Part shown: positions 175 through 6,430 of the stretch, in pieces | How the letters are laid out: the number at the start of each line of letters is the position of its first letter | Numbering within the stretch: position 1 is the stretch's first letter | Source: Candidatus Buchananbacteria bacterium RIFCSPHIGHO2_02_FULL_39_17 | Lineage (GTDB): Bacteria; Patescibacteriota; Patescibacteriia; Buchananbacterales; UBA6539 | DNA length: 43,213 nt | Reading direction: 5' to 3' | Assembly: GCA_001817425.1 (NCBI GenBank) | Contig: MHII01000010.1 | Span: 1 to 43,213 of the forward strand | Notes under the pieces: generated by a model | What the model was told of the DNA's origin: nothing | Databases searched by the model: none | Seen by the model: the letters and a program-made list of their open reading frames with translations, nothing else | Position numbers and translations under genes: made by a program

Positions 175-1023
175 TTAGGTAATGGTTAAGACAACGGTCG
201 TGGTTAAATTCTGGGCCGTCGGATTGCTTGGGATATACTGTTCCAATTTAAATTCTTTAATCCAGTAATTACCCTTGCCAAAAGTCGCGGCCGCCGTGTA
301 AATGTCAATTGAGGTCACGCCCGCGCTAAAACAATCTGTCCCGCCTTTAGTAATACTGGCGGTGCTTTGACCAGAGTTTGAAAGAATAGAACCATTGTCA
401 ACCACTAAACACATTTTGCCCAAATTATTATCTGCGCCAGTAGCATTGTAATCCAATTGCATCACGTCTTCTCCGGCTTTCCAATCGTTACCGGATAAAT
501 TAACGACCCAGCCCGCGCCCGAACCGCGCGCATCCTCAACCCGAAACGCGCCAAAAGGATTTATGGAACTCGTCTGGGCGCTGAAAGAAACGTTAACGCC
601 GGAAAAACTGGCACTTGAGGAAGCGGAAATAACATCCAAGATGCCGGCGGAAACAGTCGTATACATCGTCGAAGTAGAATTAGTCACCGCATAGACATTT
701 GAGTTTGTGCCTAACCCCAAAGAGAAAAGACTATAAATGATCAAGATTGCCGCACCAATGACAACACTATAGCTAAACCGACCTAAATTCAAGGAACGAG
801 ACGTTGGCGCTTCACTACCGGGATGAGAAGCTAGTTGGAAATAATTTGTTTTCTTAACTAAAGAAACAATTTTTTCCACTTCGGCCGCCGTATAATAACG
901 CCAACCGCGGCTGTCGCGACTCGCCTTAGGAATTAAACCCTGTTGTTCCCAGCGAATCACCGTGCTTTTATCCCGATCGATTTTACGAGTGATGTCATGA
1001 AGCCGAAATTTTTCGATTAACAT
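175..1023 (-). CDS. MerR-type HTH + transmembrane/signal segment + WxL-like extracellular domain fusion protein
   Basis: N-term [26 protein letters not shown] matches MerR HTH; hydrophobic aa ~83-105; VYA at 110-112; C-term [16 protein letters not shown] resembles the WxL-domain D-x-R...GW-x-L/V motif. Confidence 0.7.
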
Positions 1024-5726: not shown

Positions 5727-6080
5727 TTAACCTTGTCTTAACTTTTTACTAAAGCCGCCTAATTGTTTAGCAATCTCTTCACATTCCAACATCATTTCAT
5801 CAAAATTCTTTCTATTAATTAAATCGGCAGAATGCATTACGTCCAGACAAGCGACAACTTCACTAGCGGAACCAAGCGACAACTGAATGAAACGAAAAAA
5901 TTCTTTATCGGATTGCCGAGCTGATCCTTCTACGATATTCAGGACTATTGACAGAGTGGCGCGCCTAAGTTGTTCTTTCAAGCTATAAACTCTCAAGTCT
6001 TGAGTCTGGTGTAAAACTAACTTATAGAAATCCCGGGCTTTAATATAGACTGGGAAGTCAAGAAAGCGAAAAGTTTCCGT
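5727..6080 (-). CDS. four helix bundle protein (23S rRNA IVP / bAvd-like family); the expected start codon reads ACG
   Basis: QLRRATLSIVLNIVEGSAR...FIQLSLGSASEV signature; frame open upstream of the ORF-track start through FRFLDFPVY to ACG at 6080-6078, with in-frame stops just beyond. Confidence 0.85.
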   Translation of the reverse strand, partial: TETFRFLDFPVYIKARDFYKLVLHQTQDLRVYSLKEQLRRATLSIVLNIVEGSARQSDKEFFRFIQLSLGSASEVVACLDVMHSADLINRKNFDEMMLECEEIAKQLGGFSKKLRQG

Positions 6081-6149
6081 AACGAAAAATTATTACTAAG
6101 CTGCGCTATGTTATTAATTGTTAATAGTTAAATGTTAACTGTTCGAAAG

Positions 6150-6430
6150 TGGAGCCCAAGCGCGGAATTGAACCGCGGACCTACTCCTTCATGTATACCT
6201 CTATTTCGTCTTCTTTAAACTTATAAGAGGATTAGACTGTATCTTAGACATATTTCACTAAAAATGAAACTTAGTCTCCCTTGTCAGTCGTTCGAGCGCG
6301 CTGTGGCACTACGGTCTGATCCATATTAGATTAGGATTTTAACCGTTATTCGGGATTCATTATCGAGTTTCCAAGACAATGGGCATCTTTAAATACCATG
6401 GAGTTGCTCTACCAGCTGAGCTACTTGGGC
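6150..6430 (-). tRNA. intron-containing tRNA-Thr(GGT); exons 6430-6395 (36 nt) and 6189-6150 (40 nt)
   Basis: joined exons give a 76-nt cloverleaf: GCCCAAG acceptor, ACTCC-ATGGTAA-GGAGT anticodon arm, GGTTCAATTCC, CCA end. Confidence 0.92.
6190..6394 (-). ncRNA. group I intron, 205 nt, no ORF
   Basis: 5' exon ends in U, intron ends in G; P1 GGU|AU pairs with AUGCC giving the U.G wobble; P7 GACUG (6289-6285) pairs with the S element AAGAUACAGUC (6245-6235); P3 UCCC/GGGA, P8 AGAC/GUCU, P9 CCUCU/AGAGG. Confidence 0.88.

Follow-up and report, generated by a model that had tools for sequence, protein, structure and literature searches.

On the minus strand of the window (the whole 43,213-nt stretch of DNA that was analysed, contig C10 of its assembly), a tRNA-Thr(GGU) gene occupies positions 6150 to 6430 and is split in its anticodon loop by an insert of 205 nt. 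The gene is called by ARAGORN when introns are allowed (c[6150,6430], anticodon ggt, 205-nt intron after position 36), and the intron thus extends over 6190-6394, between nucleotides 36 and 37 of the tRNA. In a computed splice of the window, 6430-6395 joined to 6189-6150 yields a clean 76-nt cloverleaf tRNA-Thr(GGU) in which the CCA is encoded. Consequently, the coordinates and the product that an earlier note on this DNA had claimed are exact. U36, the last nucleotide of the 5′ exon, is at 6395, the intron ends with a G at 6190, and the 3′ exon starts with A37 at 6189. The intron is AT-rich (GC 0.38). It was also said to be devoid of a homing ORF, and, in effect, there is no ORF of 40 aa or more within 6190-6394 on either strand. 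The parts of the gene are given below, where intron position i corresponds to window coordinate 6395 - i.

6395..6430, minus strand: 5′ exon, comprising the acceptor arm, the D arm and the first half of the anticodon arm; the anticodon GGU is at 6397-6395 and U36 is the -1 nucleotide
6190..6394, minus strand: group I intron, 205 nt, without an ORF
6150..6189, minus strand: 3′ exon, starting from A37, with the T arm, the 3′ strand of the acceptor and the encoded CCA
6385..6394, minus strand: P1 extension hairpin (intron 1-10), 3 bp and a 4-nt loop
6382..6384, minus strand: internal guide sequence GCC (intron 11-13), forming P1 with the anticodon GGU, with the U36-G11 wobble at the splice site
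6358..6381, minus strand: P2 hairpin (intron 14-37), GAAA tetraloop at 6368-6371; 8 of 8 pairs double-changed; in the MFE fold
6352..6354, minus strand: 5′ strand of P3, CCC (intron 41-43), partner at 6278-6280
6311..6346, minus strand: P4-P5 domain, with P4 at intron 49-53/80-84, P5 at 58-61/73-76 and UAAA as J4/5
6295..6310, minus strand: P6 hairpin (intron 85-100); 3 of 4 pairs double-changed; in the MFE fold
6285..6289, minus strand: 5′ strand of P7, GACUG (intron 106-110), partner at 6235-6239
6278..6280, minus strand: 3′ strand of P3, GGG (intron 115-117), closing the P3/P7 pseudoknot
6246..6277, minus strand: P8 hairpin (intron 118-149), with a CUAAG...UAUG internal loop; 4 of 4 basal pairs double-changed
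6235..6245, minus strand: J8/7 AAGAUA and 3′ strand of P7, CAGUC (intron 150-160)
6198..6230, minus strand: P9 hairpin (intron 165-197); 5 of 5 pairs double-changed; in the MFE fold
6190..6190, minus strand: terminal guanosine, omega-G (intron 205)

When the 205 nt are folded alone, the MFE fold recovers P2, P4, P5, P6, P7, P8 and P9 at -45.5 kcal/mol (z = -2.19, with 4 of 200 shuffles as good). The elements that had been pointed out from the letters are all there: the U.G pair of P1 at the 5′ splice site (U36-G11), the terminal G (6190), P7 (GACUG/CAGUC), the AAGAUACAGUC element, P3, P8 and P9. Most of them are supported by compensatory changes among homologues.

Homologues were collected from two sources. 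A DNA search of 61 relatives gave 7 with the same intron-bearing gene, counting the host genome itself (G000), and a core-pattern scan of one genome per species gave at least 120 loci. An intron is called by ARAGORN at 120 of 127 loci, and 119 of these 120 parse as Thr(GGU) interrupted at 36/37, with a U before the intron and a G at its end, although the counts of U-1 and omega-G are partly imposed by the parsing rule. At some loci ARAGORN gives labels such as 'Arg gcg' or 'His gtg', which are alternative parses of the same Thr(GGU) genes. Eight loci were left over, six of them in the same Thr context, either at a contig end or missed by the program. The other two differ in kind. L028 (CAYIKH010000023.1:7408-8250) has an intact intronless tRNA-Thr(GGU) and, immediately after it, a second Thr(GGU)-like gene that bears the intron and has a degenerate-looking 5′ half, while at L039 (JAFYHU010000012.1, an Oscillospiraceae MAG), the intron core motif is in a 94-kb contig, outside any tRNA context.

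The resulting MAFFT alignment, A2, contains 115 distinct sequences, with 3 doubtful parses and 1 duplicate left out. The P1-P9 structure, written with P3/P7 as a pseudoknot, pairs 94.8% of the cells of A2, compared with 80.3% after shuffling and at most 44.2% when slid. Its covariation score is 0.414, compared with 0.138 after shuffling (0 of 500 as high) and at most 0.085 when slid. Double changes are observed at 26 of 41 pairs, in 783 cells, and P2, P3, P5, P6, P8 and P9 covary. For instance, three of the four pairs of P5 are double-changed, and P3, which is 99.4% paired, shows CG to UA double changes in 4-7 of the 115 sequences. P1, P4 and P7 are invariant in A2; for P7 and its flanks, part of the reason is the search pattern, which left them no room to vary. 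The group I topology, that is, P3-P9 with the P3/P7 pseudoknot and the P4-P6 stack, is present and covaries.

P1, consisting of GGU/GCC (the U36-G11 pair and two G-C pairs), is found in 115 of the 115 tRNA copies of A2, and 2-4 contiguous pairs adjoin the guide sequence, as a P1 extension, in 99 of 116 family members. P10, formed with the 3′ exon, is weak: the window has a single base pair there, and 76 of 116 copies have at most one. Within the intron, the CUAAG...UAUG internal loop of P8 is taken here to resemble the 11-nt GAAA-tetraloop receptor. The strict receptor motif is found in P8 in 19 of the 49 copies where L2 is GAAA, compared with 1 of the 66 others (Fisher p 1e-7, which is overstated since the sequences are related), and most of the remaining GAAA-L2 copies have near-variants (CUACG, CUUCG or CUGCG with UAUG or CAUG) that are outside the strict-motif count. 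Copies with GUAA or GCAA in L2 have plain P8 helices. Probably, the GAAA loop of P2 docks on the receptor-like loop of P8 and holds P1-P2 on the core.

The earlier note had proposed a cmsearch with the Rfam group I model, RF00028, and here the expected hit did not materialise. The window intron scores 13.0 bits (E 1.5), below the gathering score of 50, and it is not among the 6 matches listed in a search of the whole genome. The alignment is convincing only at the J8/7-P7-P9 end of the intron, and AAGAUACAGUC is matched, with high posterior probability, to AAGAUAUAGUC of the RF00028 consensus. Homologous loci behave in the same way: 1 of 20 is found at an E of 1 or better (19.5 bits), the copy in the genome G078 scores 14.9 bits, and the whole Thr-intron family is at 13-19.5 bits. 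By contrast, a family covariance model built from A2, called R1, scores 176.3 bits on the window, matches nothing else in the genome, and finds the introns of the family at 156-189 bits.

R1 also connects the family to introns that RF00028 does score. Outside the family, it has two matches only in 151 genomes of the phylum, both of them tRNA introns (in G078 and G144), to which it aligns full-length and helix for helix, at 18.7 and 20.1 bits. With RF00028, these two introns score 47.0 bits (G078, locus L148) and 69.1 bits (G144, locus L149), the second being above the threshold. They are similar to the Thr family in that they come from the same phylum, interrupt the anticodon loop and are about 190-300 nt long, but they have the usual GACUA/UAGUC P7, and it is to the GACUA/UAGUC of such RF00028-positive introns that the P7 of the Thr family, GACUG/CAGUC, aligns. 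In addition, according to Williams 2020 (bioRxiv 10.1101/2020.01.27.920355), the RF00028 seed has no bacterial sequences, and hits needed to be accepted at 18-20 bits. Since R1 links the family to introns scored by RF00028, and since bacteria are absent from the seed, the miss is due to the model and not to the RNA. The covarying topology, the link through R1 and the non-bacterial seed outweigh the failure with RF00028. By its resemblance to the Azoarcus type, the intron may be placed in subgroup IC3.

The surroundings of the two RF00028-scored introns are also of note. In G078, a genome of the same class as the host, tRNA-Tyr(GUA) is split by a more canonical group I intron of about 192 nt (G078:C4:342600-343800, 563-837, minus strand), directly after an intron-bearing tRNA-Thr(GGU). 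The 69.1-bit intron of G144 (G144:C35:8600-9241, 375-610, plus strand) is in a tRNA gene at a contig end, which ARAGORN labels Asn(gtt) with a 305-nt intron, an uncertain call.

In sum, the insert in tRNA-Thr(GGU) is a genuine intron of the group I type and belongs to a kind that is already known and widespread, rather than to a new one. The structure of the gene, the covarying helices and the family with its distribution were observed, and on these grounds 6190-6394 is very probably a compact group I ribozyme without an ORF, inserted between U36 and A37 of the genome's only tRNA-Thr(GGU). Catalysis and splicing in the cell would then follow the established group I pathway. The anticodon GGU would pair with the guide GCC (intron 11-13) to form P1, where the U36-G11 wobble would mark the 5′ splice site. 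Bound in P7, presumably at the pair G106-C160, which is assigned from other introns, a free guanosine would attack after U36. The terminal G205 would subsequently occupy the guanosine site, and the 3′-OH of U36 would attack after G205, thereby joining U36 to A37 and releasing the 76-nt tRNA. That members of the family are found in phage genes that must be expressed, as described below, argues indirectly that the family splices.

Splicing in the cell might nevertheless require a host protein, for instance an RNA chaperone or a synthetase-type cofactor, even if the group I fold is present. The low GC content (0.38) and short helices of the intron, together with a P1 that has 3 exon pairs only and a nearly absent P10, would be in keeping with such help. 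However, the intron encodes no maturase or other ORF, and a stabilising tetraloop and receptor pair is present. Moreover, the Azoarcus intron, which at 205 nt is equally small, self-splices efficiently at 37 C, as stated in a passage of PMC13168695. Dependence on a host protein is thus regarded as unlikely.

Another possibility is that the intron is not a ribozyme at all and is removed by proteins, with an endonuclease cut followed by ligation, in the archaeal or eukaryal style. In the window, the intron and the 3′ exon both begin with A, and the canonical position of protein-spliced introns, 37/38, can be drawn equally well. Nevertheless, just 46 of 116 family members begin with A, so that A37 is obtained throughout the family only if the intron is placed at 36/37. 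Recognition by the endonuclease needs no conserved, covarying and pseudoknotted core of 205 nt, and the tRNA-splicing endonuclease (PF01974) has 0 matches in a genome that is 96% complete, while the control search was positive in 4 archaea. It would be very surprising if this intron were spliced by proteins.

The genome that carries the intron comprises 1.14 Mb in 38 contigs and is 96% complete by marker genes; those of 60 sampled relatives range from 0.7 to 1.4 Mb. These sizes, together with the fact that the named carriers are for the most part Patescibacteria MAGs, suggest that the host belongs to the Patescibacteria (CPR). It has 41 tRNAs according to ARAGORN, including Thr(UGU) and Thr(CGU). 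An intact tRNA-Thr(GGU) elsewhere in the genome, which the earlier note had named as evidence against its reading, was looked for, and no second copy was found among the 41 ARAGORN tRNAs or the 44 matches to the Rfam tRNA model. With introns of up to 1500 nt allowed in ARAGORN, the gene is the sole intron-bearing tRNA in the 1.14 Mb. Six weak RF00028 matches elsewhere were considered as further group I introns and rejected, as the best is at 20.5 bits, which is noise, and they are without a tRNA; an Rfam rescan at 4 of the six found no flanking tRNA halves.

Some other features of this tRNA complement were observed. No tRNA-Phe(GAA), Lys(UUU), Ile(GAU), Gly(UCC) or Pro(UGG) was found in the 38-contig assembly with ARAGORN, introns allowed, or with the Rfam tRNA model. 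These could be missing because of gaps in the assembly or because of insertions that lie elsewhere than in the anticodon loop. Contig C23 has a called tRNA-Ile(UAU), and there are three weak tRNA-like matches, at C38:13362-13421, C34:1753-1814 and C2:9889-9974.

Near the intron, between tRNA-Thr(GGU) and tRNA-Tyr, there is an 89-aa ORF (5727-5996, minus strand) of the 23S-rRNA-intervening-sequence protein family, PF05635 (E 7e-23), with three more tblastn matches in the genome (E 4e-13 to 4e-4). It was considered as a homing endonuclease beside the intron and rejected, as it belongs to PF05635 and copies are also found in the tRNA clusters of two intronless relatives (L014 and L015). Thus, this ORF is not tied to the intron.

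The stretch is contained in DNA runs from groundwater and soil metagenomes, and contigs from four DNA runs, belonging to four studies, were compared with the region. The X1 and X2 contigs match 5900-6423 without any difference. One X2 contig joins 6188 to 6394, skipping 205 nt, and there are loose ends at 6189/6394; an intronless allele was considered for these. This was rejected, as their flanks match in the tRNA only, with 90% likeness, which points to intronless tRNA-Thr genes of other organisms.

Across species, the intron at the Thr(GGU) site is found in at least 120, mostly Patescibacteria, according to the core-pattern scan of one genome per species. The caution with which the novelty of a Thr(GGU) host had been treated was thus justified, since this host is very common. 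At closer range, R1 finds the intron in 2 of 31 genomes of the window's order (G000 and G021) and in 0 of 19 other genomes of the host's family, and a genome of the same genus (G001) has an intronless tRNA-Thr(GGU). In the phylum sample, a strong R1 match is present in 9 of 151 genomes, counting the host. The distribution is patchy. A recent donor was sought and rejected: the nearest of 114 other introns is just 71% identical to that of the window (median 64%), and no recent transfer is visible. Carriers that are labelled as non-Patescibacteria include a Pedobacter MAG and the cultured Niastella populi. The latter, a Bacteroidota isolate, has its tRNA-Thr(GGU) interrupted by a family member of 181 nt (L093, NZ_LWBP01000002.1:12869-13712).

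The presence of Thr(UGU) and Thr(CGU) tRNAs in the genome and the absence of the intron from all 19 other genomes of the family might suggest a dead tRNA-Thr(GGU), broken by a decayed mobile element while ACY codons are read otherwise, but this is scarcely credible when the two intact exons form a perfect cloverleaf, the core shows conservation and covariation over 115 copies, no second GGU gene was found in the genome, and intron-bearing and intronless copies occupy the same conserved site in a Thr-Tyr-Thr-Trp tRNA cluster.

Introns of this kind are also present in viruses. The core pattern is found in 42 stretches of viral contigs from IMG/VR, none of which has a tRNA context, and R1 gives 44 matches on these stretches, at 43-138 bits and mostly full-length, with P7 and its flanks fixed by the search pattern in this set too. 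The viral introns (L150-L195) have the same J3/4-P4, J6/7-P7-J7/3 and J8/7-P7 sequences as the Thr family, and they are likewise without an ORF and about 175-215 nt long. Their 5′ exons end with GGU or GAU, and the guide sequence matches (for instance, GAU/GUC). In contrast to the Thr family, their hosts are protein genes, which have up to three copies each, and in contrast to the window intron, their P8 is short and lacks the receptor-like loop. Once these relatives are included, in a model-fitted alignment of 36 distinct sequences, P1 covaries with the exon (GC 22, AU 3, CG 2, UA 2), and P4 covaries as well, its first pair being UA in 19 and AU in 14.

The interrupted genes were looked at in four of the contigs. 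In L194, the host is a major head protein gene whose two parts flank the intron: the upstream frame matches positions 8-96 of phrog_9953 and the downstream frame positions 101-327. Taking out the intron, which has 186 nt by the borders of the model, leaves an open frame of about 325 aa that reads through the junction. Judging from the letters at the border, the 3′ splice site could also be placed after the next G, giving 189 nt, with the frame also kept. In L193, the intron is at the start of a major head protein gene, and in L195 it follows a Sak4-like/AAA_24 domain, in a 215-kb contig rated as complete. A further viral gene (L192, G211:C1:4800-9300, 1472-2958) holds three compact introns within 1.5 kb, and a 319-aa frame runs through all three junctions after their removal; its exons have no Pfam or PHROG match.

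These relatives in viral genes are the new observation here, and they are the closest relatives of the Thr(GGU) intron outside tRNA genes. The family thereby connects cellular tRNA introns with introns of phage structural genes. It is conceivable, although only as a tentative proposal, that the Thr(GGU) intron of Patescibacteria and the ORF-less introns of phage head and replication genes are one tight family that moves between phages and their hosts without a homing endonuclease. Movement could take place by reverse splicing into sites that end with GGU or GAU, and the guide sequence would change accordingly. If this were true, the anticodon loop of tRNA-Thr(GGU) would simply be the best cellular landing site, and movement between phage and host would explain the patchiness (2 of 31 genomes in the order, 0 of 19 in the family) as well as non-Patescibacteria carriers such as Niastella populi. 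As a cultured carrier, this species is a tractable organism for the study of both splicing and mobility.

The intron has consequences for annotation. As had been predicted, standard tools are blind to the gene: default ARAGORN misses 6150-6430 and calls three other tRNAs in the window, and the Rfam tRNA model, at its gathering score, misses it as well and finds the same three. As RF00028 also fails, annotation would score this genome as lacking tRNA-Thr(GGU). This applies equally to at least 120 species, most of them Patescibacteria, so that counts of the tRNAs in these small genomes are systematically too low. If splicing proceeds as proposed above, the organism relies on a ribozyme for the only tRNA that reads its ACC and ACU codons.

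Using ARAGORN with introns, a group I covariance model and the rule of a U at -1 and a G at omega, Williams 2020 brought the classes of intron-split tRNAs in bacteria from 4 to 21 (17 new); many are from metagenome assemblies of unnamed phyla, where interrupted tRNAs number 0.49 per genome. The Thr(GGU) class is probably covered by that work. In the literature that was searched, no paper names a tRNA-Thr(GGU) group I intron, and PMC13059738, its preprint and PMC11270868 yielded nothing of relevance. One statement in Lui et al. 2021 is that some tRNAs of circularised genomes have group I introns, and one in the tRNAscan-SE 2.0 paper is that the program was not designed for detecting such introns. 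The tRNA group I introns of Patescibacteria are the subject of Nakagawa et al. 2025 (cited in PMC12641178), whose title suggests a non-classical site. Among the classes of Williams 2020, the Ile2 labelled '5Ug' has the same loop position as the window intron, with a U before it and a G at the intron end.

The Azoarcus intron offers a further comparison. The window intron has another host tRNA and another guide sequence (here GGU/GCC), and its sequence is too far for the RF00028 threshold. Self-splicing, demonstrated for the Azoarcus intron, is predicted for the window intron. In the Azoarcus intron, L2 docks on P8. Both introns are compact, ORF-less RNAs of 205 nt in the anticodon loop of a bacterial tRNA, and both dispense with the peripheral domains of the Tetrahymena intron.
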